Shown here piece after piece: positions 1,887 to 62,948 of a stretch of DNA of 64,000 nucleotides. Below the pieces are notes generated by a model, which was given only the letters and a program-made list of their open reading frames with translations, was not told the DNA's origin and did no database searches. Every line of letters begins with the position of its first letter. Position 1 is the stretch's first letter. The position numbers and the translations under genes were made by a program. Source of the DNA: Candidatus Krumholzibacteriia bacterium (GTDB lineage Bacteria > Krumholzibacteriota > Krumholzibacteriia > LZORAL124-64-63); the NCBI GenBank assembly GCA_963825035.1, contig CAWGRT010000022.1, forward strand, positions 196,117 to 260,116, in the 5' to 3' direction.

Positions 1887-1908
1887 GACGCCGGCCGCCA
1901 CCCGCCGG

Positions 1909-4082: not shown

Positions 4083-4169
4083 GGCGAAAAGACCTTTCGT
4101 CGGAAACACGCCCGACATTATGCGCCCTGGCGGCCGCCGCGGCAACGCCGGGCGGGACGCCGGCGGCGG

Positions 4170-5561
4170 TCAGCCGCGCCGCCCGCCCCGCGCGCGGCCG
4201 TCGGTCCGCGGCAGGGTCAGGCCCAGCCGCCGCACCCGGCGCAGCAGGGTGGTCTTGTGGATGCCCATCTCCCGTGCCGCCGCCTGGCGGTTGCCGTGGT
4301 GGCGCGTCACCACGTCCAGGATGTAGCGGGCCTCGTAGTCCCGCAGGGTGGGTGCGGGCGACAGCCCCCCGGCCCCGCCCGGATCCCGGAAGTGGGCCGG
4401 CAGATCGTCGGGGCCGACCTCCGTCCCGGCGCACAACACGAAGGCGTGCTCCATCACGTTCTCCAGCTCGCGGATGTTGCCGGGGTAGTCGTGGACCATC
4501 AACAGGTCCAGGGCCTCCCGGTCGATCCCCGTCACCGGCTTGCCCCGCCGCCGCGACAGCTGCGCCAGGAACCGCTGGGCCAGCAGGGGGATGTCGCGCC
4601 GCCGCTCCCGCAGCGGCGGCAGCTCCAGGCTGAGCACGTTGATGCGGTAGTAGAGATCGCGGCGGAAGCGGCCGGCCTCCACCAGCCGCGCCAGGTCCTG
4701 GTTGGTGGCGGCCACCACGCGCACGTCGGCACGCACGGGACGGTTGTCGCCCAGCCGCTCGTACACGCGATCCTGCAGGAAGCGCAGCAGCTTCACCTGC
4801 ATGCCCGGGGACATGTCGCCGATCTCGTCCAGGAACAGGGTCCCACCCTCGGCCGCGGCGATGCGGCCCTGCCGGTCGTGGGCGGCGCCGGTGAAGGCGC
4901 CGGCCCGGTAACCGAAGAGCTCCGACTCCAGCAGGGTCTCGGGCAGGGCGCCGCAGCTGACGGTCACCAGCGGCCGTTCGCGGCGGGGGCTGAGGTTGTG
5001 CACCGCCCGCACGATCAGGCTCTTGCCGGTGCCCGTTTCGCCCCGCACCAGGATGGTGCTCTCGCTGCGGGCCACGGTGGGCAGGACCTCGAAGACGCGC
5101 TTCATGTGGGGATCGTCCGAGACGATCTCCGCGAAGGGATGATGCTGCTCCAGGTCCCGCAGCAGGTCCCGGACCCAGGTCAGGTTGCGGAAGGTCTCCA
5201 CGCAGCCCACCACCCGGCCGCGCCGGTCCTTCAGCACCGAACTGGAGAGGGTCGCCGGCACCCGGTGTCCGTGGGCATCCAGCAGGTCGACGGGCTGGTT
5301 CACCACCGGCGCGCCGGTCTCCAGGGCACAGGTCATGGCGCAGCATTCCCGGCAGATGTCGGCGCGGATCACCTCGTGGCAAGGTCGGCCCAGGGCCGCT
5401 GCGCGGTCGATGCCCAGGGTCAGCGCCGCCGCCCGGTTCAGGGCGATGATCCGCCGGTCGGCGTCCACGGCGAACACGCCGTCGGAGGTGCTGTCGAAGA
5501 GGAGTTCGCTCAGCCCCGGCGGCAGGGATGGGGCGGGGGTGTCGGGCCGGGCCGGGGTCAT
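4170..5561 (-). CDS. Sigma-54-dependent transcriptional activator (PAS - AAA+ - Fis-type HTH)
   Basis: Walker A GETGTGKS and the GAFTGA loop (YRAGAFTGA) are present, with a C-terminal HTH. The N-terminal PAS domain has a Cys cluster, [18 protein letters not shown]. Confidence 0.92.
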
Positions 5562-5749
5562 GGCGCCAACCTCCGGGTACGGGTCATGGGCCTGACGCCG
5601 AACGGCGCCGCGGCAAACGTAGCACTAACGCCCCGATACCTCCAGCAAATGGTGCGTTTTCGCTACGGCCCCTGACGCCGCCGCCCGACAGCCACTACGC
5701 AACACACTATAAGTCAACGTGTTAGCGGCATCCCGAGCCGCGCGAAGCC

Positions 5750-5765
5750 TGGCCCCGTCCATGCA
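5750..5765 (+). promoter_or_regulatory. Candidate sigma-54 promoter (TGGCCC-N5-ATGCA)
   Basis: TGGCCCCGTCCATGCA has GG and GC at the canonical 12-nt register. It lies 109 nt upstream of the ATG at 5874 and is divergent from the sigma-54 activator gene. Confidence 0.4.
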
Positions 5766-5873
5766 GCCACATTCCCGGCGACAGGGCATCCCAACCCGCC
5801 CTGCCGACCGAGGCGACACGCCCTCGCTCGCGGGCCTCGCCGGGATCGAGCGCCCCAACCGGAAGGACGCGCC

Positions 5874-6383
5874 ATGACCGACTGCCTGTACCAGCTGCTG
5901 CTGGAATGCGAGAACGAGTTCGTCAACGACATCATGACCCACCTGCGCCAGTCGACCGCCAGCCACTACGTGGCCGAGGACTACGACCGGCTGCAGCGCC
6001 GGGTCCAGAAGCTGGTGGCCTACTTCGTCATGTCCATGCGCGAGCACCCCGACCGCTTCGTGGACTACGTGGCGGAGATGGCCCGCGAGCGCATCGCCGA
6101 AGGGTACACCCTGCAGGAGATCCTCCTGGCCCTGCGCCTGCTGGAAGAGAAGGCCTGGCGCCTGACCATCGAGAGCCTGGTCCAACCTGCGCTGGTGCCC
6201 GCCCTGTGCCGCGTGACCGGCACGGTGGGGGCGGCCAAGGACGGCCTGGCCGGCATCTACCTGGGCCACCTCGAGCAGACGGCCCAGGCCGCGCAGACGT
6301 GGCAGCGTCGCTGCCAGGAACTGGAATTGGCCCTGGCGGAGGCCGACAGCGCGGTGGCGCATCACACCGCCGACGCGTCCTGA
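5874..6383 (+). CDS. Helical sensor-like protein, RsbRD_N-like (uncertain)
   Basis: 169 aa ORF with good GC3 and GGAAGG 7 nt upstream of the ATG. It is all-helical and resembles the N-terminal non-haem globin-like domain of RsbR paralogs. The family assignment is from memory only. Confidence 0.5.
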   Translation: MTDCLYQLLLECENEFVNDIMTHLRQSTASHYVAEDYDRLQRRVQKLVAYFVMSMREHPDRFVDYVAEMARERIAEGYTLQEILLALRLLEEKAWRLTIESLVQPALVPALCRVTGTVGAAKDGLAGIYLGHLEQTAQAAQTWQRRCQELELALAEADSAVAHHTADAS

Positions 6384-6402
6384 ATCGCGGACGGCGGCGC
6401 CT

Positions 6403-9249
6403 TCAGCGCACCACGACGAACTTGCCCACGAAGTCGCCGAAGCGGTTGTCGTCCGACTGGACAGAGTACAGGTAGACCCCGCTGACGATCTCCTGGGCGT
6501 TGCGGCTCATCAGGTTCCAACTCGCGGCGCCCACGCCGCCGGTGCCGTCGTGCTGCAGCTCGCGCACCAGATCCCCCGCCACCGTGTAGATGCGGATGGT
6601 GTTGCGGGCCGCCGGCAGGTTGGCGAAGACCACGCGCACACCGGTCGGATCGTCGCCGACGGGGTCCATCTGCTGGAACTCGCGCAGGGCGTCGCGGGTG
6701 GCCGGGTTGGGGTAGACGTAGATGTTGGCGCCCCGGCGGGACCGCTCCTCGGCGGTCTGGGCCGCCGCCGCCGGCGTGCCCCAGGTGAAGGACGTGCCCG
6801 GGTTGCCCGCCAGCCCGGGCCCCTGGGGCGTCAGGGCATCGGGCGTGTCCGCCCCCGCGGGCAGCAGGTGGTCCGTGGCCGTCACCGCGTAGAAGTACAG
6901 GAACCCGTTGTGGACGTCCCGGTCCAGGTACTCGTAGTAGGTGGTGCTCCGCTTGGCCACCACGTCGGGATCGTCCGGATCGGCCGGCCGCGCGGCCACG
7001 GCGAAGAAGGTGTCCAGCACGTCCGGTTCGGTCTCCCAGGGCAGGAGCGACAGGTACGCCGGGTCGGGCCGGCCGTCGGAGTCCCGCAGCTGCGGACTCT
7101 CCCGCAACAGGCCGCGGGTGTCGGCGTCCACGATCGCCTGCATCGCCGCCTCCAGTCCGGCGTAGGCAGGATCGTCGAGCACCCGCGGCCGATACCGGAT
7201 CTCCTCCAGGCCGGTGTTGCGGCCCAGGGGCATGGTGTCCGTCACCGCGACGCCGCCGCGGACCGACGTGGTGACGTAGTCGTTCACCAGGTCGTATTCC
7301 GCGACCAGCTGCCAGAGATCGCTCTCGGGCCCGCCCTCCAGGGACGAGCCGAAGGGCCGCGCCCAATTGTCGGCCCGCCACACCCGGTAGGACTCGAAGT
7401 CGATCTTCTGCAGACGCACGTCCGGACTGTGCTCCGAGCGGTCGTCCCAGAACACGTGCATGGCCGCGTCCCGCGGCCACAGGCGCACCCCCGGCGGCGG
7501 CGGCGCCATGCCCACCAACCAGTGGATCTGGGTGTCGAGGCCGTTGATGCCGGTGCAGCCCACGGTGCTGGTGGCCGTGCTGTCGCCGCAGGTCCAGACG
7601 TGGTCGCGGAAGTCGGCGGTGGTGCACTCCCGGCCCACGGACCGCGCGCACTCGAAGCAGTTGTCCAGGTTGAACATGGCGCAGACCTTGCCGTCGTGGT
7701 TGAACAGGTCGTCGTCCTGCAGGCCCGGCTGGTTCAGGGCCCACAGGGGGTCGAGGCAGGTGGTGTCCATGTAGTCGGGGATGAAGGTGTTGAAGGGATT
7801 GTCGGGCCCGTCATCGCCGAAGTCCTCGCGGCAGAGCATGGTCTCGCGTCCCCGCTGGCCCGGGTCGAACACCCGCCCCGAGTACGTCGCCACCGACCCC
7901 AGGTCGTTGGCCCACGCCCCGTGCCAGGTGAGCCAGGCCTCCATGCAGTTGCCCAGCAGCCCCGTCATGGCTTCGGGGTCGCCCCGCCCGTGGCCGCAGA
8001 CCATCGCCACCTGGAACGTCAGGCTCTCGTCGGGTGCCAGACTCCTGAAGGGTCCCGCCGAGACCAGCATGCGGAAGTCCGCCGGCCGGTTGGCGTCGGC
8101 ATCCCAATCCTCGGGCGCGGCCGACATCAGCTGGTAGAGCTGCGCGTCGTTGGTCGGGTCTCCCCCCTGCTCGAAGGCCGCGTTGCCCTGGAAGCTCTGG
8201 AAGGTGCGCAGGCCCACGCTCTGGGGTGCCGTGCGGCCGGTGGGGTCGATGTCGTGGCCCAGAAAGAGGATGCCGAAGTAGTCGTCCACCCGCCCCGACT
8301 CGGCGGCGTCGTAGGTGTAGCCCACCTCGATCGGCACCCAGCCGCCGTCGGGTGAGCGCACCATGCCGCGGTAGGATCCCGTCAGGTCGTCGGTGTAGTA
8401 GCTGTTCTCGGAGCGGGGGCCCACGTCGCCGTCGGCGTAGATGCCGATGTAGACCTGCTCCAGCTCCACCACGCCCACGTTGGTGACCGTGTAGTCGAAA
8501 CCGATGAAGTCGTCGGCCTGGTCCGTGTCCCAGGCCACCGCCGTCTGCACCACCTTCAGGTTCATGGGGGTGTGGTCGGGGAAGCGCTCCTGGGCGTAGA
8601 GCGTGTTGTCGTACATGGTGCACACCATCATCTGGGTGCCGATCTGCCCGAAGTCCTCGTCGATGCGGCCGTCCCCGTCGTCGTCGTGGCCGTCGAGGAC
8701 CTCCTCGTCCACGCGGCCGTCGTCGTCGTCGTCTGGGTTGGGCATGGGCGCGCGGGCGCCGCCGGCGGCGGTGTTGCCGGGCGGCCGGATGATCTGCTGG
8801 TTGCGCGCCTCGTAAAGGGTGGCTTCCAGCTCGTCCCGGGGCCGCCACTCGCTGGCGAGGCCGCCCTGGGAGACCACCGTCTCGCCCAGCATGCGCGCCC
8901 CCACCAGCAGACGCGCGGTGTAGAGGTGCTCGATGCCGGAACCGGCCGGCCACTGGCAGGACGGTTTGTCGGCGTACGCGGCCGGGCTGCCGGGCGCCGA
9001 TCCGATGAGGCCCCAGTTGGTGAGGTGCATCTGCACCTGGCCCACGTTCATGATGTAGCTGCCGTCGGTGATGTGGATCCCCGCGCCGTGGTAGGCGCCT
9101 TCGTCCGGCGGCGGCTCCTGCCAGGCGCGGACGGGCGCGGCCGCGGCGGTGGCGAGCACGGCCAGGACGACGATGACGGCGCGGGAATCGGGAAGACGGG
9201 ACGACGGGCGGGCGGCGCGACGGCGCGGCCGGAACTGACCACGGACCAC
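6403..9249 (-). CDS. Large secreted protein with acidic Ca-binding-like repeat, Cys-rich region and FlgD-Ig/T9SS-type C-terminal domain
   Basis: GTG at 9249 is preceded by GAGGAAG and followed by a signal peptide (AVIVVLAVLATAAAAPVRA). It has an Asp-rich stretch (NPDDDDDGRVDEEVLDGHDDDGDGRIDEDF). The C-terminus (YVYPNP...GVYLYSVQ...) is typical of sorting domains. Confidence 0.85.
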   Translation of the reverse strand: MVRGQFRPRRRAARPSSRLPDSRAVIVVLAVLATAAAAPVRAWQEPPPDEGAYHGAGIHITDGSYIMNVGQVQMHLTNWGLIGSAPGSPAAYADKPSCQWPAGSGIEHLYTARLLVGARMLGETVVSQGGLASEWRPRDELEATLYEARNQQIIRPPGNTAAGGARAPMPNPDDDDDGRVDEEVLDGHDDDGDGRIDEDFGQIGTQMMVCTMYDNTLYAQERFPDHTPMNLKVVQTAVAWDTDQADDFIGFDYTVTNVGVVELEQVYIGIYADGDVGPRSENSYYTDDLTGSYRGMVRSPDGGWVPIEVGYTYDAAESGRVDDYFGILFLGHDIDPTGRTAPQSVGLRTFQSFQGNAAFEQGGDPTNDAQLYQLMSAAPEDWDADANRPADFRMLVSAGPFRSLAPDESLTFQVAMVCGHGRGDPEAMTGLLGNCMEAWLTWHGAWANDLGSVATYSGRVFDPGQRGRETMLCREDFGDDGPDNPFNTFIPDYMDTTCLDPLWALNQPGLQDDDLFNHDGKVCAMFNLDNCFECARSVGRECTTADFRDHVWTCGDSTATSTVGCTGINGLDTQIHWLVGMAPPPPGVRLWPRDAAMHVFWDDRSEHSPDVRLQKIDFESYRVWRADNWARPFGSSLEGGPESDLWQLVAEYDLVNDYVTTSVRGGVAVTDTMPLGRNTGLEEIRYRPRVLDDPAYAGLEAAMQAIVDADTRGLLRESPQLRDSDGRPDPAYLSLLPWETEPDVLDTFFAVAARPADPDDPDVVAKRSTTYYEYLDRDVHNGFLYFYAVTATDHLLPAGADTPDALTPQGPGLAGNPGTSFTWGTPAAAAQTAEERSRRGANIYVYPNPATRDALREFQQMDPVGDDPTGVRVVFANLPAARNTIRIYTVAGDLVRELQHDGTGGVGAASWNLMSRNAQEIVSGVYLYSVQSDDNRFGDFVGKFVVVR

Positions 9250-9388
9250 GGTGGACTTCCTCGGCGATGTGGGGTGTCCGGTCCTGGTCGCGTCGGATGA
9301 CGATACGGAGGGGCGGTGCACGGGGCAAGCGGGCCGCCGGACCCGTCAGGATCCGGCGGCCCGGAAGGCGCGGCGCGGACGGCGCCGG

Positions 9389-11884
9389 CTACTTCAGCAT
9401 GGTGACCTTCTGCACCCGCGTGCCGGTCGGCGTCGCCAGCCGTACGGCGTAGATGCCCGCCGGCATGGCGCGGCCCGCGTCGTCGCGGCCGTCCCAGACG
9501 ACCGAGCCCGGGCCCGCCGGACGCGCCTCGTCCACCAGGGTGGCGACGCGGCGGCCGGCCAGGTCGTACACCACCAGCGACACGGGTCCCGCCTGGGCCA
9601 CCGCGTAGGCGATCGTCGTCTGCGGATTGAACGGGTTGGGCGTCGCCGGAGCCAGGGTCAGCGTCGGCGCGGTCGGCGTGACGCGCACCGTCTCGTAGGC
9701 CACGGTGGTCCAGGCGCCGTCCAGCCAGAGCTGGACGGCGTAGCTCACGTCGCCGCCCGTCGTCACCCGGTCCACGGCGCGGTAGGCGCCGCCCAGGTCG
9801 TCCACCGCCACGTCCCAGGACCGGCTGCCGGCGGCGGCGACCACCCGGAAGCGCGGGGCGTCCCCGGCGCCGGGGGCCGACCAGGCCACGGTCACCTCGC
9901 CGCCGCGGTGCGTGACCGTGAAGCCGGCGATCAGGGTGGGCACGGCGGCCTCGCAGGGCGCCGCCAGCACGGACAGGCCGCGCGCGGTCGTGGCCACCAG
10001 CGCGTAGTCGCTCACGGCCATGGTCACGGCGCCGATCGCCGTATAGCCCTCGATCTCCGGCGCCGACGGCGTCGTCACGTCCACCGTCACCACCTGGCCG
10101 GCGCCCACTGCGAACAGGCGGCTGCCCCGCAGGCCGGACAGCACGGTCCGGTCCGGGACGACGACCGATCCCAGTTCGGCCGGCGCCAGGGGCTGGCTCA
10201 GGTCGAACACGGCCAGGACCGTCAGGCCGTCCTGCACGCCCACGGCGTAGCCGAATCCGTCCCGGATCACCAGGCCCTTCGGACTCCAGGGGAACGAGGC
10301 CTGGCCCAGGACGGCCGGAGCCGTGAGATCACTCACATCCACGACCGCCGCCTCCGCGGAGCCGCCGGTGCAGTACGCCAGCCCGCCGTCGAGCGCCAGG
10401 TGATCGGTCGCGGCCGGCAGCAGAACCGAACCCTTCGCATGGGGTGCCGCCGGGTCGGCGAGATCGTCGATCTGGTAGGTGTAGTCCGCGCCGGCCAGCG
10501 TCACGTGGTGGACCCGCGACCCCTCGACCGCGGCCGCCCGCGCGTGCGGCAGCTGGGCGGTCTCGGTCCCCGTGGCGCGGTCCAGGATCCGCAGGATGCC
10601 CCAGCTGTCGTCGTTCACGACCACCGAGGCGGGGGTGAAGCCGACGATCGGCGCGCCCGAGTCGGCCATTTCCGAGATCTGCCACAACTGGTTGCCCAGC
10701 ACGTCGCCTTCCACGGCCCAGGCCTGGATCTTCATGGTGCCCAAGCCCGGGTCGTCCACGTCCGGGGTGAAGGAGGACTCGACGCAGACGTCGCTGCCGA
10801 CACCGACGGACGGGTAGCTCGCCGCGCCTGACTTCGTCTGCAGGACCGCCGTCTCGAAGCCCGGAGCCGCCGTCCAGACCTCGACCGATCCGTACGCCTC
10901 CACCACCAGGACGCCGCCCCCGATGGTGGGCGCCACCCCGGTCAGGCTCCCGTGGCTCACGGCCCCGATCTCCATGGCCGTCTCCGGGTTCACCAGCACC
11001 GCCCCGTACTTGCGGCCGATGGTGGCGATGTTGCCGGCCCCGCCGGGAACGCAGGACTGGAGGGAGGTCAGCTCCTGAGGGAACGTAAAGGTGCTGACGT
11101 CGACGATCGAACCGTCCGCCGCGATGGTGCGGTAATCGACCGAGTACTGCTTCAGGGTCGTGCCGTAGCCGAGCGACATCGACCACACCCTGATCGAGGC
11201 GAACCTGTCGCCCACGGCCCGCACGTGCGGCGCGTAGGTCTCGCCCGAGCCCACGATCTCATCCACCACCACGCCCGCGCTCGGGTCGCTCATGTCCACC
11301 GACTGGATGCGGGGGATGTAGGGTTCGGTGGCGCAGAGGACGAGATATCCGTGCAGGAACGCCACCGAATCGACGGTGCCGGGCGGGGTATAGGTGCCCA
11401 GGTGCGTGATCGCCGCGGGGTCGGTCACGTCCAGCACGACGACCCCGGCGTCCCGGGCGCCCACGTAGGCCGTGGTCCCGTCGAGGGCCACGTCGGTGGC
11501 GGCGGCCGGCGTCACGAAGGAGCCGACCAGGACCGCCGGACCGTCGGCCGGGACATCGATGACCATCAGCCCGCCCGTGTCGGCCGCGACGTAGGCCCGG
11601 CTGCCCGCCACCGCGATGGCGCGCACCGAATGGCCCAGGGCGAGGGTGTCGGTGAAGGTCGGCGCAAGGGGATCCGAGAGGTCCAGCACGACGAACGATC
11701 CCGTGGACGTGCCGATCAGTTCCCGGTCGCCCATCCGCGCCGAGCAGTTGGCGTTGCTGAACGGCAGGCTGGCGGTGTGGACGACGCCGTCGCCGTAGTC
11801 GTGGCAGGGCCAGGCCGCGGCGCTGCCGGCAAGCAGGCAGGCGCAGACGGCCGCGGCGAATCCGAGGCGGAATCGTGCGGACAT
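9389..11884 (-). CDS. LVIVD-repeat beta-propeller protein with FlgD-Ig/T9SS-type C-terminal domain
   Basis: ATG at 11884 with a GGGGGA RBS and a signal peptide (LLAGSAAA). It has repeated LVIVD-like units (VVLDLSDP, LMVIDV, VVVLDVTDP, VFDLSQP). The C-terminal tail reads NPFNPQTTI...GIYAVRL. Confidence 0.85.
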   Translation of the reverse strand: MSARFRLGFAAAVCACLLAGSAAAWPCHDYGDGVVHTASLPFSNANCSARMGDRELIGTSTGSFVVLDLSDPLAPTFTDTLALGHSVRAIAVAGSRAYVAADTGGLMVIDVPADGPAVLVGSFVTPAAATDVALDGTTAYVGARDAGVVVLDVTDPAAITHLGTYTPPGTVDSVAFLHGYLVLCATEPYIPRIQSVDMSDPSAGVVVDEIVGSGETYAPHVRAVGDRFASIRVWSMSLGYGTTLKQYSVDYRTIAADGSIVDVSTFTFPQELTSLQSCVPGGAGNIATIGRKYGAVLVNPETAMEIGAVSHGSLTGVAPTIGGGVLVVEAYGSVEVWTAAPGFETAVLQTKSGAASYPSVGVGSDVCVESSFTPDVDDPGLGTMKIQAWAVEGDVLGNQLWQISEMADSGAPIVGFTPASVVVNDDSWGILRILDRATGTETAQLPHARAAAVEGSRVHHVTLAGADYTYQIDDLADPAAPHAKGSVLLPAATDHLALDGGLAYCTGGSAEAAVVDVSDLTAPAVLGQASFPWSPKGLVIRDGFGYAVGVQDGLTVLAVFDLSQPLAPAELGSVVVPDRTVLSGLRGSRLFAVGAGQVVTVDVTTPSAPEIEGYTAIGAVTMAVSDYALVATTARGLSVLAAPCEAAVPTLIAGFTVTHRGGEVTVAWSAPGAGDAPRFRVVAAAGSRSWDVAVDDLGGAYRAVDRVTTGGDVSYAVQLWLDGAWTTVAYETVRVTPTAPTLTLAPATPNPFNPQTTIAYAVAQAGPVSLVVYDLAGRRVATLVDEARPAGPGSVVWDGRDDAGRAMPAGIYAVRLATPTGTRVQKVTMLK

Positions 11885-11977
11885 GGTATCCCCCAAAAAG
11901 CTGGAGCCCCGTTGTGATACCGGCACCGCAAGTGTCTGCACGCGGGTTTGCGACGAGGTGTCGATGTGCGTCGGTGG

Positions 11978-12029: not shown

Positions 12030-12915
12030 TCAGCGCAGCACCCAGTGCCTCGCTCCCTGCTCGTCCAGGAACGCCTCGGCCCCTGCGCCCTGCAGCATGG
12101 CCAGGGTAGCCAGCAGGCCCGCCTCCAGGCAGGTGTCGCCCAGCACCGTCACCGAGCGCGGCGCCTGGCGGGCGGGCCAGCCGGTGCGCGGGTCGAGGAT
12201 GTGGCCGTAGCGCACGCCGTCGCGCTGGACGAAGCGCCGCGCGTCGCCGCTGGTGGCCAGGGCGCCCTGCTCCAGGCGCACCGTCAGCGCCGCCTCGTCC
12301 TCCGCGCCGGGCCGTTCGACGCCCACCTCCCAGCCGCCCCCCCCGCGCCGGGCCCCGGCCGCCCGCAGGTCGCCGCCGAAGTTCACCAGCACCGCGGCGC
12401 CGGTCCGCTCCCGCAGCAGGGCCGCGGCCCGGTCCACGGCGTACTCCTTGCCCAGGCCGCCCAGGTCGATCTCCATGCCCGCGGGCAGCGTCAGCTCGGG
12501 CCGGCGCCACGCCGCCTTGTCCCAGCCCACCAGGGGCAGCAGCGCCCGCACCGCGCCCACGGGCGGCACCGCGTCGCCGCCGTCGAAGCGCCAGGCCCGG
12601 CGCAGCACGCCCGAGGTGACGTCGAAGAGCCCGCCGCTGAGGCGCCAGCAGCGGTCGGCGAAGTCCAGCAGGTCGGCGGTCTCGTCGTCCACGACCACGG
12701 GGCGGCCGCCGGCGGCGTTGACCGCGGCGACCGCCCCGTCGTCGCGGTAGCGGCTGAACTTGTGCTCGATGCGACGGGCCTCGGCGGCCGGCGGCCTCGC
12801 CCAGCAGCCGCGCCTCCAGGGGGTCGGTCGTGTCCAGCAACACCGTGCAGGGCGAGGCCATGGCCGCGAACGAGGCCCGGTGGTGGTCGCCGGCACGCTC
12901 GACCCGGACCTCCAC
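12030..12915 (-). pseudogene. apbE: FAD:protein FMN transferase ApbE, one frame break near 12785-12800 as sequenced
   Basis: The N-terminus (VEVRVERAGDHHRASFAAMASPCTVLLD) is in one frame. The rest (EARRIEHKFSRY...GGLGKEYAVD...YGHILDPRTG) is in another. Confidence 0.8.
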
Positions 12916-12917
12916 CG

Positions 12918-14192
12918 CTACAGGTGGAAGTTGAAGCCCACCTGGACGATGTAGGCGTCCACGGCGGGGAACAGGTCGAAGTTGCGCAGGGCGCCGAACG
13001 CCTCGGCCGGATGGCCGTCGCCCGTCTGCCGGTAGTACTCGGCGCGCAGGGTCAGCTCACGGCCGTCGCTCAGGGGCGTGCCGTACATCAGGCCGAAGGT
13101 CCAGGTGGTCATGTCCCCCAGACGATAGTCGGCCGAGGCGTGGGCCGGCGCCGCCGCCCCGTCCACCAGCCAGCGGTGGTAGAAGTCGGCGGCGGTCTGG
13201 TGGTACCAGCGCACGTGGGGCTGCAGGTACTTGCCGTTCCCGAAGTTCCAGCGCAGCCGGCCTTCCACCGCGTCGGACGCGATGCTCCAGTCGTCGGTCA
13301 TGCAGCCGGTACGAGAGCTGCAGGTCGTTGCCGGCGATGTCCCGCACCAGCCGCGTGTAGAAGATGTGCTTGGTGCGCGCGTCGGGCCGGCTCTCGTACA
13401 GGTACTGCAGCGGATCGCCGGTCGTGCCGTCGACCACGCTCAGCAGCTTGTAGGGATCGGTCTGGTAGCCGCTGACGTGGCTCCAGGGTGTAGCCCGCGT
13501 AGAACACCGTCTTCTTGTCCAGCACCTGGGTCAGGCCCAGGCCCGCTTCGGCGGTGTTCTTGGTGTCGGTGGAGCCGCCGCCCTCGTCCTCGCCGCCGGC
13601 GAAGGGGTCGGCGCCACCATGGGGGTCAGCGGGTCGGGCACGCCGCCCTCGGGGCCGCACCGATGTCGTGGAAGACGGCCGTGTGCAGGTCCAGGGTGGT
13701 GTTGCGCTTGTTGAAGTCGCGGGTGAGCGAGGCGTTGGCCCCGAGCGACGTGTAGTCGTGCTCGGTGGAGACGTACAGCCCGCCGGTGGCCGTGGAGAGC
13801 CGTCCCAGGTTGACGGTGCCGCTGCCGCTGAGCGCGATCCGCGTGTCCTTGAAGGTGTCGTCCAGGGGCGTGTCGCCGGCGGGCGCCGTGTAGGTGCCCT
13901 GGCCCGACGGCCGCGTGAAGGACTGCACGTGCGCGGACGGCGTGGCGCCGTTGGCCGAGGCGCCGGTCAGCGCGTCGTAGACCAGGCGGAAGTGGACCGA
14001 GCGCCCCTGATCGTCCTGGTGGGTCAGGTCGCCGATGGCCTCGAAGGCCGACACCCGGCCGGGCTCGGTGTAGCCCATGGCCGCGGTGCGCAGCTCCGTG
14101 GCCCGGGCGGTGCCGCCGCTGACGCCCAGCAGGCCGCAGGCGGAGACCAGGGCCGTGCGCAGGACGCCCTTCCCGCCGTCAGTTGCAGCCAC
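12918..14192 (-). pseudogene. DUF3570-family outer-membrane barrel protein, at least 4 frame breaks as sequenced
   Basis: Four collinear fragments in different frames rebuild one protein, ending in an aromatic-rich C-terminus (VQVGFNFHL). Breaks are near 13655, 13620, 13483 and 13302. It contains DALTGAS at 13956-13976. Confidence 0.7.
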
Positions 14193-14431
14193 AGCCGCCT
14201 CCCGCCGCGCCGAGGCCGCCGGTGGAGGCCTCCTTGCTGAAGTAGATGTGCTCGTCCAGGGCGGTCACCAGGACGTCGGGATCGATCTGCATGCCGGGCT
14301 CGGCCAGGGTCGGCGCGCTCCCAGGGCTTGACCCCGATCGAGGAGCAGCCCCCCAGGGCCAGGGGCGCGGCCAGGGCCAGCAGCAAGGGCAGCAGCGCCA
14401 GGGCGGTGCGGAGATTACGGCGCATGGTCAC
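14179..14431 (-). pseudogene. DUF4266 lipoprotein, one frame break near 14307-14309
   Basis: Lipobox LALGGC is followed by VKPWERA. After a 1-nt shift the frame reads LAEPGMQIDPDVLVTALDEHIYFSKEASTGG...GGGCGCN to the stop. This matches the family's C-terminal CGCN signature as I remember it. Confidence 0.65.
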
Positions 14432-14928
14432 CCTCCTTGTCCTTCAGCAGCAGCGCGATCTCGCCTTCCCGGTCGCCGGACTCGGCGGGCACGTACCCCA
14501 CGTGGTCGAAGCGCAGCTTGCCGGTCCGGTCGTAGACGTAGGTGCTGGGCATGCCCTGCAGGTCGTACTTGCCGGCCAGCTCGCCCTCGGGGTCGTGGAC
14601 CACCACCACCGCCGTGGACAGCCCGGCCAGCATGGTCTGCGCCGAGTCCAGGTCCTCGTCCAGGTTCACCGCCACCACCACCAGGCCGTCGTCCCTGTGG
14701 GCCGCCGCCAGCTGCGACAGCCAGGGCAGCGCCTTGCCGCAGGGCTTGCACCAGGAGGCCCAGAAGTCCACCACCAGCACCTTGCCGGCATAGTCGGCCA
14801 GGGCGAAGTCGGCGGGCGCGAGGACGGGGTGGCGGATCGGGTGCGGCGGCGGTCGCCGCGGCGGCGGCGCCGAGCGCCAGGAACACCGCGGCCAGGGCGG
14901 CCGTCCGAAGCGGTCCGTTGCGCAGCAT
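14415..14928 (-). pseudogene. TlpA-like thiol:disulfide oxidoreductase (thioredoxin fold), one frame break near 14840
   Basis: The signal peptide is in one frame. The thioredoxin core, with WASWCKPC and GMPSTYVYD, is in another frame. Confidence 0.75.
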
Positions 14929-15039
14929 GATGGCCTTTCCGCGTGGGGTGTCGAAGATGTGCCCGGGTGAATATCCGACGATTCTAGTCCGCCACTCGTC
15001 GAAAATGTTCCCACGTTTTCAGGCCGCGGTCGAGACAAA

Positions 15040-15069
15040 CGAGCCCGCCCGGCGGAGCAGGCGGGCTCG
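15040..15069 (-). terminator. Intrinsic terminator-like hairpin downstream of ilvE
   Basis: A 10-bp GC stem (CGAGCCCGCC / GGCGGGCTCG) is followed on the minus strand by TTTGTCTCG. It lies 26 nt after the ilvE stop. Confidence 0.55.
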
Positions 15070-15094
15070 CTGGCGGAGGGGACCGCCGGGCACG

Positions 15095-16159
15095 TCAAGC
15101 GCGCGGCACCACGTGGGTCCACTCGGGGTGGGCGCCGCCGCCCCGGGCGTGGATGCCGGTCAGGGTCCCGCGCAGCTTCAGGGTCAGCGGACCCTCCTTG
15201 CCGTCGCCGATGGTGTGGTCCTCGCCCTTGAAGTGGATGACGCCCACGGGGGTGACCACCGCGGCGGTGCCGCAGGCGAACACCTCCTTCAGCTTGCCGC
15301 TGTGGGCGTCGGCGACGACCTCGGCGATGGCCGGATGCTCCTCGATCCAGCGCACGTCCATGTCCTGCAGCAGGGCGCCCACCGACTCGCGGGTGACGCC
15401 GTGCAGGATGGTGTCGCCGGCCGGCGCCGTGACCACCTTGTCGTCGTAGACGAACATGATGTTCATGGCGCCCATCTCCTCGACGTACTTCTTCTCCCGC
15501 GCGTCGAGCCAGATGATGTTGTCGTAGCCGGCCTTCTGGGCCCGGGCGATGGGCAGCAGCGAGGCCGAGTAGTTGCCGCCGGTCTTGGCGTAGCCGGTGC
15601 CGCCGGGCGCCGAGCGCACGAACTCCTCCTCCACCCGCAGGCGCAGGGGATTCACGCCGCCGGCGAAGTAGCTGCCCACCGGCCCGATGATGATGAAGAA
15701 CACGTACTCGGTGCTGGCCTTGACGCCCAGCCCGCGCTGCGTCGCGATCATCGTCGGCCGGATGTACAGGGCGTTGGGGCTCTCGGGCACCCAGTCCCGG
15801 TCCAGGTCGATCAGCTTCTCCAGCGCGAGCATGAACAGCTCGGGATCGACCTCGGGCATGCACATGCGCTCGCAGCTGATGTTGAAGCGGCGGATGTTGC
15901 GGTCGGGGCGGAACATGTGGACGGTGCCGTCGTCGCTGTTGCGGTAGGCCTTCATGCCCTCGAAGATCTCCTGCCCGTAGTGCAGCACCTTGGCCGCCGG
16001 GTCGAGGGTGAACGGCCCGTAGGGCACGATGCGCGGGTCGTGCCACAGGCCGTCCTTCCAGTCCATCAGGAACATGTGCGGGGTGAACTTCTGGCCGAAG
16101 CCGTAGTCGCCGTCCGGCTTGGCGGGGGGATTGGGGTTCCTGGTGACCGTGATGCTCAT
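15095..16159 (-). CDS. ilvE: Branched-chain amino acid aminotransferase
   Basis: Intact 354 aa ORF with class IV aminotransferase motifs (YGQEIFEGMKAY, the conserved PLP-lysine motif). GAGGAGGA lies upstream of the ATG. Confidence 0.95.
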   Translation of the reverse strand: MSITVTRNPNPPAKPDGDYGFGQKFTPHMFLMDWKDGLWHDPRIVPYGPFTLDPAAKVLHYGQEIFEGMKAYRNSDDGTVHMFRPDRNIRRFNISCERMCMPEVDPELFMLALEKLIDLDRDWVPESPNALYIRPTMIATQRGLGVKASTEYVFFIIIGPVGSYFAGGVNPLRLRVEEEFVRSAPGGTGYAKTGGNYSASLLPIARAQKAGYDNIIWLDAREKKYVEEMGAMNIMFVYDDKVVTAPAGDTILHGVTRESVGALLQDMDVRWIEEHPAIAEVVADAHSGKLKEVFACGTAAVVTPVGVIHFKGEDHTIGDGKEGPLTLKLRGTLTGIHARGGGAHPEWTHVVPRA

Positions 16160-16332
16160 CCCGTCCTCCTCGTCTTGCGGAGCGCGCGGGGCGAGGGGCG
16201 CTCCGGCCCTAAAATAGGGTGGTCAGGCCCGGTATCGGGGGTGGGACCTTGGGTCCAATGTGGCGGTTGGGGGAGGGGAAATCAAGCCTTGCCGGGCGAC
16301 CCGCGCCCGGGGTCGCCGCCGGCGGTTCCGGA

Positions 16333-16738: not shown

Positions 16739-18540
16739 CTACTCGAGCAGGGTCACCGCCCGGGTGGCCAGGATCCGGCCGGTCCCCGCGCCGCCGGTCA
16801 GCCGCACGTAGTAGACGCCCGAGGCGGCCGCGCGGCCGGCGTCGTCCCGGCCGTCCCAGGTGACGGCGTGCTCGCCGGCGGCGTAGGCCCGGCGCCCGAA
16901 GTCGCGCACCAGGCGCCCGCGGGCGTCGTACACGGCCAGGCGTCACGTCGCCTTCGCGGTCCAGGGCGAAGCGCAGCTGCGTCGCCGGGTTGAACGGGTT
17001 CGGCGCGTTGGGCAGCAGCCGCGCCCGGCCCCCCGTCGGCCGGGGCCGGCAACGGCACCGCCGACGACCGCCGAGCCCAGGCGAGAAGTCGGCGAAGCGG
17101 GCGGCGTGGTCGCTGGCGTCGGTGGTGTCGTACTGCTGCAGCCCGTAGGTGGCCAGGGTCGCGGCGGTCATCGTCCGCGTCTCCATGACCGCGTGGTGCT
17201 GCAGGGTCAGGTCGCTGTCGGTGTAGAAGATCCAGTCCAGCATGCCCGGGTAGTAGCTGCTGTAGTCGGCGAACCAGGTGTAGGCCGAGCGCTGGTCCGC
17301 GTGGCGGGAATGGGGCGTGGCGAAGTCGCCGCCGTCCCAGTCCGGCGCGGCGTCCGGGCCGTAGGTGCCCTCGTCCTGGATGTCGCCCGTCGTGATGGTG
17401 TCCAGCTGCTGCCGCCAGCCCACCAGGTTCAGGTCGCCCGACATGAGGATGGGCGTGTCCGCGGGCAGGGTGATGACGCCGCCGGGGCGTCTTGGCGTCG
17501 CGCAGGAAGGCGACGACGGCGTCGGCCTCCTCCTGGCGGTTGGCGTCGGCGGTGCAGCAGCGCCAGTGGCTGAAGACCATCAGCAGATCGGTGGACGCCG
17601 CCGGGCCCAGGTCCAGCAGCGCGGCGGAGTTGCGGAAGCTGGGCGTGATGCGCCAGCTCTGCAGGATGGGGAAGCGGGTGCACAGGACGTTGCCGTCGTC
17701 CTCCTTGACCGCGTACCACTGCTCGCCCGGGCCGCTGGGCAGGGCCTGCTCGATGCGGGCGGCCACCTGGGCGGCCGAGTGGTTCCAGACCTCGCAGCAC
17801 ACCAGGATGTCCGGGTCCATGACGGCCAGCAGGCGGTCCTGGGCGGCCGCGGCCGAGCCGCCGTCGAAGAGGCGGTCGCTCTGCACGTTCCAGGTGGCCA
17901 GGCGGATGTTGGACGGGTCGGCGCGGCCCAGGTCCAGGCTGGGCACGGGGATGCCGCCGGCGGCGAAGGTGTAGGTGACCGGGTCGGTGACGTCGCCGCC
18001 CGAGGCGCCGTCCCGCAGGACGAAGCGCACCGTGTTCCCCGGGAACAGGGGCGTGCTGCCCACGGGCACGGCGTCGCGGCGCAGGGCCAGCTCGAACTGG
18101 GTGCTGCTGACCGTCGGGCCCACCTGCAGGCCGATGTCCGGGTGGCCGATGTTCGTACCCCGGAAGGTCGCCGTTGCGCTGGCCCAGGTTCCAGACCAGG
18201 TCGGCGCCGATGCCGCCGTAGGCCGTGCCCGTGGACGGCGTTCATGTCCGTGTCCAGGTACAGGCGGATGTCCTGCTGCTCGTCGGGCTGGACGTCGACG
18301 CCGGTGGTGAAGCGGATGAAGAACCAGTCCTGGTCGTTGGCGGCGGCGATGTCGCCGAAATCGATGCCGCTGGTGCCGCCGTCGCCGGCCGGGTCGGTGG
18401 CCAGGGGCGCCACGGCGGCTCCAGTCGTCGAACCAGCCGTCCAGGACGATGGGCTCCAGGTCGGCCCGGGCGGGCCCGGCGGACAGCCCGACGGCGGCGG
18501 CGACCGCCGCGAGCAAAGAGGCGAGGACAATGCGGCGCAT
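16739..18540 (-). pseudogene. Secreted endonuclease/exonuclease/phosphatase (EEP)-family protein with FlgD-Ig/T9SS-type C-terminal domain, at least 5 frame breaks
   Basis: ATG at 18540 with a signal peptide (LLAAVAAAVGLSAGPARA). Collinear fragments in three frames include the EEP core (IRLATWNVQ...ILVCCEVW...LMSGDLN...SDHAA). The tail reads NPFNPATQLRF...GVYYVRL...VTLLE. Confidence 0.75.
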
Positions 18541-18595
18541 GGTGTTGTGCTTTCCTTGGGTTCGCTGGTGACCGGTTGCGCAGGCGGACGGACAA

Positions 18596-18625
18596 ATCAT
18601 ATCACAAAAACGGTGGTTTTGCCAA
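18596..18625 (-). promoter_or_regulatory. Candidate sigma-70-type promoter (TTGGCA -N18- TGATATGAT) for the EEP gene
   Basis: It has the same 12-mer and the same 18-nt spacer as at 11978-12007. The -10 lies 56 nt upstream of the ATG at 18540. Confidence 0.35.
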
Positions 18626-18817: not shown

Positions 18818-19600
18818 ATGAGCGACCGTCCCCAGCCCCTGTTCTCCTGCCGGGACGTGCGGGTCTTCATCCGCAACGGCGACGACGAGAAAGAGATCGT
18901 CAAGGGCGCCGACCTGGAGATCATGGCCGGCCAGAAGCACGCCCTGATGGGCCCCAACGGGTCCGGCAAGTCCACCCTGGCGGCCGCCCTCATGGGCCAC
19001 CCCGCCTACCGGGTCGAGGGCGAGATCTTCCTGAAGGGCCAGCCCGTCCACGACCTCGAACCCCACGAGCGCGCCCGCCTGGGCATGTTCCTGGGCTTCC
19101 AGTACCCGGTGGCGGTGCCCGGCGTCTCGGTCGCCAACTTCCTGCGCGCCGCCATGGGCGCCCGCCGCGGCGAGGACGTGCCGGTGCGCGAGTTCCGGCA
19201 GCTGATGACCGCGGGGTTCGAGAGCCTGGGCGTCCCCAAGGACTTCGCCGGACGCTACCTGAACGAAGGCTTCAGCGGAGGCGAGAAGAAGCGCCTCGAG
19301 ATCCTGCAGATGCTCCTGCTGAAGCCCACCTTCGCCCTGCTGGACGAGACCGACAGCGGGCTGGACATCGACGCCCTGAAGGTCGTCAGCGAGGGCGTGA
19401 ACCTGGCCGGCAACGCCGACAACGCCATCCTGCTGGTGACCCACTACCAGCGCATCCTGCAGTACGTGAAGCCCGACGTGGTCCACGTGTTCAAGGATGG
19501 GCGCATCGTGCGCACGGGCGGCCCCGAACTGGCGGTCGAACTGGAAGCGCGCGGTTACGACTGGATCGTCGGCGAGCCTTCGGCCGCCGCGAGGAGCTGA
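18818..19600 (+). CDS. sufC: Fe-S cluster assembly ATPase SufC
   Basis: AAGGAG RBS, Walker A GPNGSGKST, ABC signature FSGGEKKR and Walker B LLDETDSGLD. Confidence 0.95.
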   Translation: MSDRPQPLFSCRDVRVFIRNGDDEKEIVKGADLEIMAGQKHALMGPNGSGKSTLAAALMGHPAYRVEGEIFLKGQPVHDLEPHERARLGMFLGFQYPVAVPGVSVANFLRAAMGARRGEDVPVREFRQLMTAGFESLGVPKDFAGRYLNEGFSGGEKKRLEILQMLLLKPTFALLDETDSGLDIDALKVVSEGVNLAGNADNAILLVTHYQRILQYVKPDVVHVFKDGRIVRTGGPELAVELEARGYDWIVGEPSAAARS

Positions 19601-19606
19601 TAGATC

Positions 19607-21022
19607 ATGAGCACCAGCCGCATCGAGGATCTCAATCTCGACTACCAGGCGAAGTACGGCTTCGCCGACCCTGAAGAGTACCTCATGAAGGCCCCCAAGG
19701 GCCTGAGTCACGAGGTCGTGGAGATGATCTCGCGGTACAAGAACGAGCCCGACTGGATGCGCGAGTACCGGCACAAGGCCCTGGACATCTTCGAGAGCAA
19801 GCCCATGCCCCGCTGGGCCAACAGCGAGCTGCTGGATGCCATCGACTTCGCCGACATCCACTACTACCTGAAGTCCTCGGCCGGCTCGGCCAACGACTGG
19901 GACGACGTGCCCGAGAACATCAAGAACACCTTCGACCGCCTGGGCATCCCCGAGGCCGAGCAGAAGTTCCTGGCCGGGGTGACCGCCCAGTACGAGTCCG
20001 AGGTGGTCTACCACAGCATGCACGAGGCCGTCGCCAAGCAGGGCGTCCTGTTCACGGACATGGACACGGCCCTGCGCGAGCATCCGGAGATCGTCAAGAA
20101 GTACTGGGCCACGGTGATCCCCGCCCAGGACAACAAGTTCTCCGCGCTCAACAGCGCGGTGTGGTCGGGCGGTTCGTTCATCTACGTGCCCAAGAACACC
20201 AAGGTGGAGATCCCCCTGCAGGCCTACTTCCGGATCAACGCCGAGAACATGGGCCAGTTCGAGCGCACCCTGATCATCGCGGACGAGGGCAGCTCGGTGC
20301 ACTACATCGAGGGCTGCACGGCGCCGGTCTACTCCACCAACAGCCTGCACTCGGCGGTGGTCGAACTGGTGGCGCTCAAGGGCGCGCGCATCCGCTACAC
20401 GACCATCCAGAACTGGTCCAACAACATCTACAACCTGGTGACCAAGCGCGCCCACGCCCACGAGGACGCGGTGGTCGAGTGGGTCGACGGCAACATCGGC
20501 TCGAAGCTGACCATGAAGTACCCGGCGGTCTACCTGCTGGGCGAACGGGCCCACGGCGAGGTCCTGTCCATCGCCTACGCGGGCGACGGCCAGCACCAGG
20601 ACGCCGGCGCCAAGATGGTGCACGCGGCGGCCAACACCTCGAGCCGCATCATCAGCAAGTCCATCTCCAAGGGCACCGGGCGCACCAGCTACCGGGGCCT
20701 GGTGAAGGTGCTCAAGGGCAAGGACCACTGCCGCTCCAACGTGGAGTGCGACGCCCTGCTGATCGGCGACCAGGCCCGCAGCGACACCTTCCCCACCATG
20801 GAGATCGGCGAGCAGGACGTGCGCATGGAACACGAGGCGCGCGTCTCGAAACTGGCGGACGAGCAGCTGTTCTACCTGCAGAGCCGCGGCATCGATCCGG
20901 AGCAGGCGCGCCTGATGATCGTCAACGGCTTCATCGAGCCGTTCGTGCGCGAGCTGCCCATGGAGTACGCGGTCGAGCTGAACCGGCTGATCGCCCTGGA
21001 GATGGAGGGTTCCGTTGGTTGA
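19607..21022 (+). CDS. sufB: Fe-S cluster assembly scaffold SufB
   Basis: Intact 471 aa ORF that is highly SufB-like throughout ([21 protein letters not shown]...). Confidence 0.95.
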
Positions 21023-22301
21023 TCTGGCGCTCATGAGCATCGAAGGCAAGCCCGCCCTGGACACCGGGGACGTCCGCCGGCTGTCGGCCGAGCTGGGCGA
21101 GAGTCCCGCCGGCCTGGCCTGGCGCCTGGCGGCGCTGGATGACTACCGCGGCATGCCCCTGCCGTCCCGGGTGCGCCACCTGTGGCGCTACACCGACCCC
21201 ATGCACCTGATGCCGGGCGAGGCCCTGCCGGCGTCCATGCCGCCGCGCGATCTGACCGCCTGCGAGCTGCCGACGGTCGAGCCGGCGGTGCTGCTGGTGC
21301 CCGGCCGCGCGCCCGAACTGAACGAGGCGGCCCGCACCGCGGGCCTGCACATCGCCCCCCTGCTGCACGACGACGGGGACGCGGAGCTGCTCGGGACGGC
21401 GTCCCCCAGCGCCGCAGGCTTCTTCGCGTCCCTGAACTCGGCCGCCTGGAACGCCGGCGTGGCCGTCTTCGTGCCCGCGGGCAAGGCGCTGGAGCAGCCC
21501 CTGCGGGTGCTGGTGCCGGCGTTCGCCGAGACCACCCTGCCCCGGGTGCTGGTGGTCGCCGGCCGCGGCGCCGAGGTGACCGTGGTCGAGGAGCACTTCG
21601 ACGGCCGCGAGGGCCATCGCGTGATCGGCGTGACCGAACTGCTGGTGGGCGAGGGCGCCCACGTGCGCCACGTGCTGGTGGAACGCTGGGAAGCCGGCGT
21701 CCACGGGTTCCTGGCGGTCAAGGCGCGCGTCGAGCGGGACGGCTCCTACCTGGGCGTGAACGCCTCCCTGGGCGGGGACCGCGTCAAGCTGGAGCTGGGT
21801 GCCGACCTGGTGGGCCGCGGGGCCGGCAGCGAGCTGGTCGGCGTGGTGCTCGGCGGCGGCACGCAGCGCTTCGACCACCACACGAGCCACCGCCACGACG
21901 CCCCGGACACCACCAGCAACATCGACTTCAAGGTGGCCCTGACCGAGAAGTCGCGCTCGTCCTACACGGGACTGATCCGCATCGAGGAGCACGCGGTCCG
22001 CAGCGAGGCCTTCCAGGAGAACCGCAACCTGCTGCTCTCGGACGGCGCCCGCGCCGACACGATCCCCGAGCTGGAGATCCTCACCGACGACGTGTCCTGC
22101 AGCCACGGCGCCACCGCCGCGCCCATCGACCCCGAGCAGATCTTCTACCTGCAGAGCCGGGGCATCGCCCGCGACGAGGCCGTGCGCCTGGTGGTGCGCG
22201 GGTTCGTCGAGACCACCCTGACCCGGGTGCCGGCGTCGGTGCGCCAGGACCTCGAGTCCCTGGTCACCGCGCGCCTCTCCGTGCTCGGCGAGGGTGTGTG
22301 A
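21015..22301 (+). CDS. sufD: Fe-S cluster assembly protein SufD
   Basis: 428 aa SufB/D-family C-terminal beta-helix. TTG at 21015 lies 6 nt after GGAGGG and overlaps the sufB stop. An alternative ATG is at 21033. Confidence 0.85.
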
Positions 22302-23551
22302 TGGATCCCCGGTACGCAGCCGCGGACCGGGCGGCGGCCGAGGGGCTGCTGCGGGAGCGCTTTCCCATCCTCGGGCGGACGGTCAACGGCCGCCCGCTGG
22401 TCTATCTCGATTCGGCCGCCACCACCCAGAAGCCGGATGCGGTGATCGACGCCGAGGCCGACTACTACCGCCGCTCCAACGCCAACGTCCACCGCGGCCT
22501 GCACACCCTGGGCGACGAGGCCACGCACCTGTACGAGGGCTGCCGCGCGGCGGTGGCCGACTGGCTGGCGGTCGCGCCGGCGCAGGTGACGATCCAGCGC
22601 TCGGCCACCGCGGCCATCAACCTGGTGGCCCGGGGCTGGGAACAGAACCTGGCCGAGGGCGACGCGATCCTGGTGACCGAGATGGAGCACCACGCCAACT
22701 TCGTGCCCTGGCAGATGCTGGCGGCCAGGAAGAAGCTGGAACTGCGCGTGCTGCCGGTGACCGACGGCGGCGAACTGGACCTGGCCCGCCTGGACGACCT
22801 GCTGGACGCCAAGGTCAAGGTCGTGGCGGTGAACCACATCTCCAACGTGCTGGGCACGGTCAACCCGGTGGCGCGGATCTGCGCCCGCGCCCGCGACCTG
22901 GGCGCGGTCAGCCTGGTGGACGCCGCCCAGTCGGTGGGCCACCGCCCCCTGACCTTCGCCGACACCGGCGCCGACCTGATGGTCTTCAGCGCCCACAAAT
23001 GCTACGGCCCCATGGGCCTGGGCTTCCTGGTGGGCCGCCCCGAGACGCTGGCCCGGCTCGAGCCCATGGAGGGCGGCGGCGAGATGATCGAGTGGGTGCG
23101 CCTGGAGGGCACCACCTGGGCCGAGGTGCCCCACCGCTTCGAGGCGGGCACCCCCAACGTGGGGGCGGCGGCGGCCTTCCCCGCGGCCATCGCCCTGCTC
23201 CGGGAGATCGGGCTGGCGAACGTGCGGGCCCACGAGGAGGACCTGACCGGCTACGCCCTGGACACACTGGCGGCCATCGACGGTCTGGTTATCTTCGGTC
23301 CCGGGGACCCCGCGCGCCGCGGCGGCCTGGTGAGCTTCCACGACCCGCAGGTCCACCCCCACGACCTGAGCACGATCCTCGACCAGCTGGGGATCGCCGT
23401 CAGGGCGGGCCACCATTGCGCCCAGCCCCTGCACCGGCGGCTCGGCGTGGTCGCGACGACCCGGGCCTCCTTCGGCGTCTACACCACGCGGGGGGAGATC
23501 GACGCCCTGGCCGCCGGCATCCTGGAAGCCCGGAAGGTGTTCGCGCTGTGA
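22301..23551 (+). CDS. sufS: Cysteine desulfurase SufS (class V aminotransferase)
   Basis: The ATG overlaps the sufD stop (TGATG). Motifs YLDSAATTQKP, SAHKCYGP (PLP lysine) and RAGHHCAQP (active-site Cys) are present. Confidence 0.93.
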   Translation: MDPRYAAADRAAAEGLLRERFPILGRTVNGRPLVYLDSAATTQKPDAVIDAEADYYRRSNANVHRGLHTLGDEATHLYEGCRAAVADWLAVAPAQVTIQRSATAAINLVARGWEQNLAEGDAILVTEMEHHANFVPWQMLAARKKLELRVLPVTDGGELDLARLDDLLDAKVKVVAVNHISNVLGTVNPVARICARARDLGAVSLVDAAQSVGHRPLTFADTGADLMVFSAHKCYGPMGLGFLVGRPETLARLEPMEGGGEMIEWVRLEGTTWAEVPHRFEAGTPNVGAAAAFPAAIALLREIGLANVRAHEEDLTGYALDTLAAIDGLVIFGPGDPARRGGLVSFHDPQVHPHDLSTILDQLGIAVRAGHHCAQPLHRRLGVVATTRASFGVYTTRGEIDALAAGILEARKVFAL

Positions 23552-61080: not shown

Positions 61081-61094
61081 GGTTTCTCCTTTCA

Positions 61095-62935: not shown

Positions 62936-62948
62936 CGCCGCTGGCGCC

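Follow-up and report, generated by a model that had tools for sequence, protein, structure and literature searches.

Introduction

Enzymes of the ApbE family attach flavin mononucleotide (FMN) to proteins that carry the motif D-x-x-[S/T]-G-A-[S/T], in which the last residue receives the flavin, and seven-residue motifs of this kind suffice as substrates even on unstructured segments (2025 review, PMC12052999). Starting from orphan apbE genes, Méheust et al. (eLife 2021, PMC8238504) identified DUF3570 as a conserved neighbour with [S/T]GA[S/T] motifs, and described 543 clusters in which ApbE and DUF3570 are combined with a thioredoxin-like protein and DUF4266, 227 of them with DsbD and 316 without. 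When the DUF3570 protein of Chlorobium luteolum was co-expressed with its cognate ApbE in Escherichia coli, it acquired covalent flavin, which was lost only if both [S/T]GA[S/T] serines were mutated; the reaction took place in the cytoplasm and the DUF3570 product was insoluble (PMC8238504). The same authors drew attention to a CXC at the C-terminus of DUF4266 and suggested that the cluster forms a hybrid thioredoxin/flavin system for electron transfer, with an uncertain function. ApbE-dependent covalent flavin on DUF3570 has been shown for the C. luteolum homologue only (PMC8238504), and DUF3570 is not among the models of a 2024 follow-up on the structural contexts of flavinylation. Here, we analyse a cluster of these four families at positions 12030–14928 of a 64,000-nucleotide (nt) stretch of genomic DNA from a Candidatus Krumholzibacteriia bacterium, referred to as the window.

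The region can with high confidence be assigned to the published DUF3570-type flavinylation clusters, of which it is a typical representative in a Krumholzibacteriota-related genome, and the single-nucleotide insertions and deletions (indels) that break its open reading frames are most likely assembly errors. Flavinylation of DUF3570 by ApbE has been in the literature since 2021 (Méheust et al., PMC8238504) and is not a new finding of this analysis.

A DUF3570-type flavinylation cluster

All four families named in the first-pass annotation, a reading of the DNA made before any database search, are assigned by Pfam to the minus strand of the region, where the genes follow each other from 14928 to 12030 in the order thioredoxin-like, DUF4266, DUF3570 and ApbE (Table 1). 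The locus shares with the published cluster these families (thioredoxin-like, PF14086, PF12094 and PF02424), the gene order seen in most loci, a conserved [S/T]GA[S/T] motif towards the N-terminus of DUF3570, the CXC end of DUF4266 and the lack of a nearby DsbD, as in the 316 published clusters mentioned above. It differs from it in that its reading frames are broken in the assembly, in its Krumholzibacteriota-related lineage, and in that its DUF3570 protein has one strict site followed by NGAT, whereas the Chlorobium protein has two modified serines.

The motif DALTGAS is encoded exactly where it had been reported, at residues 73–79 of DUF3570. Its last serine, Ser79 (codon 13958–13956), is the predicted FMN acceptor, since the motif rule puts the flavin on the last residue (PMC12052999). 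Two of the checks that the first-pass annotation had proposed, an alignment of DUF3570 homologues and gene-neighbourhood statistics, agree with flavinylation of DUF3570 by the co-encoded ApbE. In the alignment, D-x-x-[ST]-G-[APSG]-[ST] occupies one column in 160 of 161 homologues (121/121 and 83/83 in earlier sets), so that judged by its conservation the motif lies far beyond chance. A strict second site directly downstream is present in 9 of 83 and 15 of 161 homologues, and most carry NGAT like the window protein; an Ignavibacteriales locus (L083) reads TGASPTGAS.

The protein search returned more than 1000 DUF3570 homologues, the nearest of which (P0001) is 86% identical, and the named relatives belong to Krumholzibacteriia. 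Three relatives (L001, L002 and L003) have the arrangement BCAT, thioredoxin-like, DUF4266, DUF3570 and ApbE with intact genes. The survey sample comprised 164 loci (L001–L164) from genomes and metagenomes, and neighbours were counted in the 104 with enough flanking sequence: DUF4266 adjoins DUF3570 in all 104 and ApbE does so in 91, while the canonical gene order is found in 73. A histidine kinase/response regulator pair lies near the cluster in about 40 of 160 loci, mainly in Gammaproteobacteria, and DsbD within 4 kb in 13 of 160; neither adjoins the cluster of the window. The earlier suggestion that the co-encoded ApbE flavinylates DUF3570 agrees with the published Chlorobium experiment (PMC8238504) as well as with the conservation of the motif and the adjacency of the two genes. 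The accompanying remark that the cluster is functionally uncharacterised holds for its physiological role but not for the flavinylation step, which was published in 2021.

Reading-frame interruptions and their origin

The first-pass annotation had missed what three-frame translation and alignment to the closest relative, contig L002 (89% identical), reveal: none of the four genes is an uninterrupted open reading frame. Every gene contains one or more frame switches, and DUF3570 has five. Placed by nucleotide alignment to L002, the breaks amount to seven 1-nt insertions and one 1-nt deletion across the cluster (Table 1), and DUF3570 additionally shows an in-frame 3-nt difference at 13580–13582. 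Contigs of about 90% identity from four public metagenomes independently have one base fewer at 12788, 13304, 13481 and 14311. Four frame pieces of DUF3570 align to positions 8–177, 215–244, 246–303 and 305–427 of the PF12094 profile (E values down to 5e-40), and tblastn with the intact homologue P0001 finds the gene spread over three frames. Removal of seven bases and addition of one restores all four full-length proteins, in which the mended codons encode the residues of the relative. These read-through proteins are 86–94% identical to those of an intact relative, and read-through DUF3570 is 86–89% identical to P0001.

The interruptions extend beyond the cluster. With a hidden Markov model (HMM) of codon usage, about 60 additional same-strand frame switches are called elsewhere in the window; apart from the cluster itself (12055–14959), they fall into blocks at 16740–18502, 43781–49471, 51838–57844 and 59102–64000. 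Within the blocks the density is about one break per 300 bp, and some 40% of the window is affected; the stretches 1–11858, 15105–16172 (the BCAT gene) and 18837–43780 (including the Suf operon) are free of breaks. The +1 insertion type accounts for 53 of 67 switch calls, and the affected blocks, once read through, yield recognisable, clean proteins with no in-frame stops. In a relative-rate test against intact relatives, the cluster shows 27 versus 22 and 23 versus 22 unique changes, and hence no excess on the lineage of the window.

The indels of the cluster are very likely errors of an assembly consensus that was locally left unpolished, because the pattern consists purely of 1-nt events, is biased towards insertions, and lacks the substitutions, stops and deletions expected of decay. 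The indels might instead be real and the cluster a recently pseudogenised, non-functional operon, several other genes of the window then being pseudogenes as well, an explanation that we regard as improbable. It would account for the broken frame in all four genes, and several observations weigh in its favour and against a consensus error. The break blocks roughly match whole genes or operons and leave the adjacent BCAT gene, a gene for an 850-residue protein and the Suf operon untouched, a distribution that selective decay could also produce. Indels in homopolymers are the commonest error type of long reads, and the inserted bases here lie outside homopolymers. Searches of public runs gave nothing that shows otherwise: they returned relatives of about 90% identity and very short identical pieces, none of them across an indel site, and no same-strain reads or contigs. 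An exact-protein search with the neighbouring intact BCAT found no record, and the best match in a metagenome scan for near-identical DUF3570 was 65%. Against pseudogenisation, however, stand the nature of the eight events, all of a single nucleotide and accompanied by no nonsense mutation, larger deletion or excess of amino-acid change, and the relative-rate test, which shows none of the tens of neutral substitutions that eight neutral indels should bring. Bacterial gene decay is known to be biased towards deletions, and a bias towards insertions that persists at such a density over so much of the window, with proteins that stay readable, is unlike it. Programmed frameshifting and transcriptional slippage were also considered and rejected: the sites are numerous (eight within the 2.9 kb of the cluster, some 60 across the window), share no common motif and involve no homopolymers.

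Organization of the cluster

The window has a GC content of about 71%. The tight packing of the genes noted in the first-pass annotation is confirmed by overlaps of 11 nt between the thioredoxin-like gene and DUF4266 and of 14 nt between DUF4266 and DUF3570, and by a gap of 2 nt between DUF3570 and ApbE. The GTG start of DUF3570 sits within the GCGCN-stop codons of DUF4266, both in the window and in the three closest relatives, an arrangement that suggests translational coupling and is in keeping with the conserved "VAAT" N-terminus. The upstream BCAT gene is separated from the thioredoxin-like gene by a spacer of 166 nt (14929–15094), and because a terminator-like hairpin follows the BCAT gene, the four genes are probably transcribed as a separate unit that starts within this spacer. 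A promoter-like match at 14954–14927 overlaps the start codon of the thioredoxin-like gene and was not used.

The thioredoxin-like protein had been named TlpA. Its family-level class, its WCKPC motif and its export stand, but not the specific identity: the Pfam matches are AhpC-TSA, Redoxin and Thioredoxin_8, and the NCBIfam scores stay below their cutoffs for TlpA (NF047696; 56 bits versus 230), ResA (71 versus 170) and DsbE (63 versus 123). By its sequence matches, the protein is assigned to the ResA/DsbE/TlpA class of the thioredoxin fold and no further. The C-terminal GGGCGCN described for DUF4266 is present and followed by the stop at 14179; its last five residues, GCGCN, are invariant in 157 of 157 loci.

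Table 1. Features of the DUF3570 cluster and of the adjoining spacer, in window coordinates.
Feature	Position	Strand	Remark
Thioredoxin-like (ResA/DsbE/TlpA-class) exported thiol:disulfide oxidoreductase	14415–14928	-	170 residues after read-through; signal peptide
WCKPC of the thioredoxin-like protein	14753–14739	-	
DUF4266 small lipoprotein	14179–14425	-	81 residues; lipobox LGGC; PF14086, E = 1.6e-21; ends GGGCGCN
DUF3570 (PF12094)	12918–14192	-	423 residues after read-through
ApbE-family flavin adenine dinucleotide (FAD):protein FMN transferase	12030–12915	-	PF02424, E = 7e-68; 294 residues after read-through
DALTGAS, ApbE flavinylation site 1 of DUF3570	13956–13976	-	Residues 73–79; from translation
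NGAT, at the place of a second adjacent site	13941–13952	-	Residues 81–84; Asn where Ser/Thr expected
ApbE catalytic motif DLGGLGKEY	12467–12441	-	Retained
ApbE catalytic motif NFGGD	12383–12369	-	Retained
ApbE catalytic motif ALATSGD	12263–12243	-	Retained
ApbE catalytic motif GHILDPRTG	12206–12180	-	Retained
Terminator-like hairpin 3' of the upstream BCAT gene	15043–15062	-	Consensus scan only
Inserted G, thioredoxin-like gene	14833	-	L002 alignment; HMM frame switch at 14842
Inserted G, DUF4266	14311	-	L002 alignment; base absent from related metagenome contigs
Inserted T, DUF3570	13663	-	L002 alignment
Inserted G, DUF3570	13650	-	L002 alignment
1-nt deletion, DUF3570	about 13590–13613, near 13600	-	L002 alignment and HMM; divergent region, exact base uncertain
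Inserted A, DUF3570	13482	-	L002 alignment and metagenome relatives
Inserted T, DUF3570	13304	-	L002 alignment and metagenome relatives
Inserted C, ApbE	12787	-	L002 alignment and metagenome relatives

Predicted structure of DUF3570

The DUF3570 protein has a Sec-type signal peptide with predicted cleavage after ARA (residue 31). AlphaFold was run on the nearest homologue P0001 with 120 homologues and returned a model (pLDDT 88, pTM 0.83) with 16 long antiparallel strands, one face of which carries long connections of 37, 29, 29, 28 and 20 residues, while the other carries turns of 2–5 residues and both termini. DUF3570 is predicted from this model to be a 16-strand outer-membrane beta-barrel. 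A Foldseek search of the PDB gave 131 matches at E<=0.001, and all 50 of the matches listed are outer-membrane barrels. With TM-scores of 0.3–0.47 overall, and an E value of 1.8e-6 and a TMq of 0.40 for the top match, MtrB, the similarity indicates a generic barrel resemblance between the model and these structures.

In the model, the flavinylation motif is located where strand 3 ends and the loop of residues 78–114 begins. This end is placed on the outer side because long loops and short turns follow the usual rule for outer-membrane proteins. Loop 78–114 is the most conserved of the long loops and contains many family-invariant residues.

The comparison with MtrB extends to function in one respect, as the MtrB/MtrA conduit of Shewanella (PDB 6r2q) is likewise an outer-membrane barrel tied to a redox cofactor. 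However, the 26-strand barrel of MtrB encloses a decahaem protein that is separate from it, whereas DUF3570 would have about 16 strands and a covalent flavin of its own, and a resemblance at the TMq given above and 11% identity does not speak for homology or for trans-membrane electron transfer.

ApbE without a signal peptide

The PDB homologues of the window ApbE include the solved FMN transferases 1vrm (1.6e-34), 4xdt and 6nxi. Only 18 residues precede its conserved core, and it has no signal peptide; its alignment to the PDB chains begins at equivalent positions, which leaves no room for a leader. The same holds across the family, where about 15–30 residues of the DUF3570-linked ApbEs are followed by a conserved F-x-A-MASPCE core. 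A signal peptide was found in 0 of 115 linked ApbEs, and the maximum 10-residue hydropathy lies below 2.0 in 115 of 115; by the same measure, 97% of the neighbouring thioredoxin-like and DUF4266 proteins exceed 2.0. Judged from these sequences, DUF3570, an exported barrel, seems to be served by a cognate flavin transferase that stays in the cytoplasm.

The linked enzymes resemble the canonical periplasmic ApbE/Ftp, which acts on NqrC, RnfG and NosR-type FMN-bind substrates, in enzyme family, catalytic motifs, the D-x-x-[ST]-G-A-[ST] target and the phosphoester link to FMN. They differ from it in that they have no lipoprotein or Sec signal and carry "MASPC" in place of the canonical N-terminal core motif, and in that they serve a predicted outer-membrane beta-barrel instead of an FMN_bind domain. 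Cytosolic ApbEs are known only with cytoplasmic substrates (PMC12052999). In Klebsiella pneumoniae, a cytosolic ApbE that likewise lacks a signal peptide modifies a soluble, cytoplasmic fumarate reductase (PMC12052999), whereas DUF3570 is made with a signal peptide and has a predicted outer-membrane fold. No discussion of the ApbE location or of the barrel topology of the DUF3570 system, including the position of the flavin site on the most conserved long loop, was found in the searchable literature.

Proposed mechanism and alternative substrates

In the proposed mechanism, ApbE would draw on FAD to link FMN to Ser79 of DUF3570 through a phosphoester bond, a step that is experimental for the Chlorobium homologue. 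Modification of the unfolded precursor may take place in the cytoplasm before export, which is possible because the ApbE subfamily has no signal peptide and is compatible with the published E. coli experiment because the protein modified there was cytoplasmic and insoluble (PMC8238504). DUF3570 would then be exported via its Sec signal and fold as a 16-strand barrel, with the flavinylated residue at the end of strand 3 and the start of loop 78–114. The thioredoxin-like protein (WCKPC) and the DUF4266 lipoprotein (GCGCN) would relay reducing equivalents to the flavin, supplied by a DsbD/CcdA-type membrane protein encoded elsewhere.

Taken to its full extent, the mechanism describes a flavin-based outer-membrane redox module whose precursor is flavinylated in the cytoplasm and whose FMN-bearing chain passes through SecYEG, so that the flavin comes to lie on a conserved extracellular or lumenal loop and carries electrons from the thioredoxin-like/DUF4266 thiol relay through the outer membrane, much as porin-cytochrome conduits do but without haem. 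We put this forward tentatively and consider it unlikely in its entirety. Several points count against the main reading, in which the locus is a member of the published cluster that works by the mechanism above: the window DUF3570 has no strict second [S/T]GA[S/T] site; the multi-pass membrane proteins of the window include no DsbD/CcdA, the candidate electron source being absent there; the sidedness of the loop is read from strand and loop lengths; and the flavinylation, localisation and electron flow of the window DUF3570 are predictions from its sequence.

Alternatively, the ApbE of the cluster could serve another FMN-binding protein encoded elsewhere, DALTGAS of DUF3570 remaining unmodified in this lineage. 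This would reconcile an enzyme without a signal peptide with a DUF3570 protein that is exported, and the known ApbEs of this kind indeed act on cytoplasmic enzymes (PMC12052999). Yet the linked ApbEs lack a signal peptide throughout the sample (0 of 115), which includes the Ignavibacteriales locus, and for the Chlorobium homologue the cognate ApbE was shown to carry out flavinylation in the cytoplasm of E. coli. The near-universal motif of the DUF3570 homologues and the predominant adjacency of the two genes likewise argue against a substrate elsewhere, as does the sufficiency of seven-residue motifs on unstructured segments (PMC12052999). Another substrate is therefore highly improbable, and DUF3570 is retained as the predicted target of the co-encoded ApbE.

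Other features of the window

An intact Suf iron-sulfur operon, judged from translation, lies on the plus strand at 18837–24381 and encodes SufC, SufB, SufD, SufS, a SufU/NifU-like protein and a small DUF59-like protein; a SUFBD gene is also found nearby at the syntenic locus of a relative. At 50449–57844 on the minus strand, a very large S8 subtilisin-like protease comprises several repeats of a module of about 300 residues and shows about 20 frame switches. Its C-terminus is a FlgD-Ig-like sorting domain of the type IX secretion system (T9SS) type, and similar ends are present on the 850-residue protein (9389–11941) and on an Exo_endo_phos protein (16740–18600).

A segment of 1.5 kb at 38120–39646 has a GC content of about 60% and is non-coding by the codon model. 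It holds two atypical hypothetical open reading frames on the minus strand (38254–38655 and 38656–39480) and may be a small acquired island. Rfam gave no match across the whole window, this segment included.

At 12406–12704, a salt-marsh metagenome run (X3) contributes two 151-bp pieces that differ from the window at 0 and 2 positions, at a depth of 2–3, and other relatives derive from mangrove and marine sediments. These matches offer a hint as to the habitat of the source organism.

Implications

For the window itself the finding carries little weight: the cluster is one more instance of a system that had already been published, and the breaks in its genes probably have a technical cause. 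If, for the DUF3570 family, both the cytoplasmic ApbE and the position of the flavin on the most conserved loop hold, the system would represent an unusual way to place a flavin in the outer membrane.

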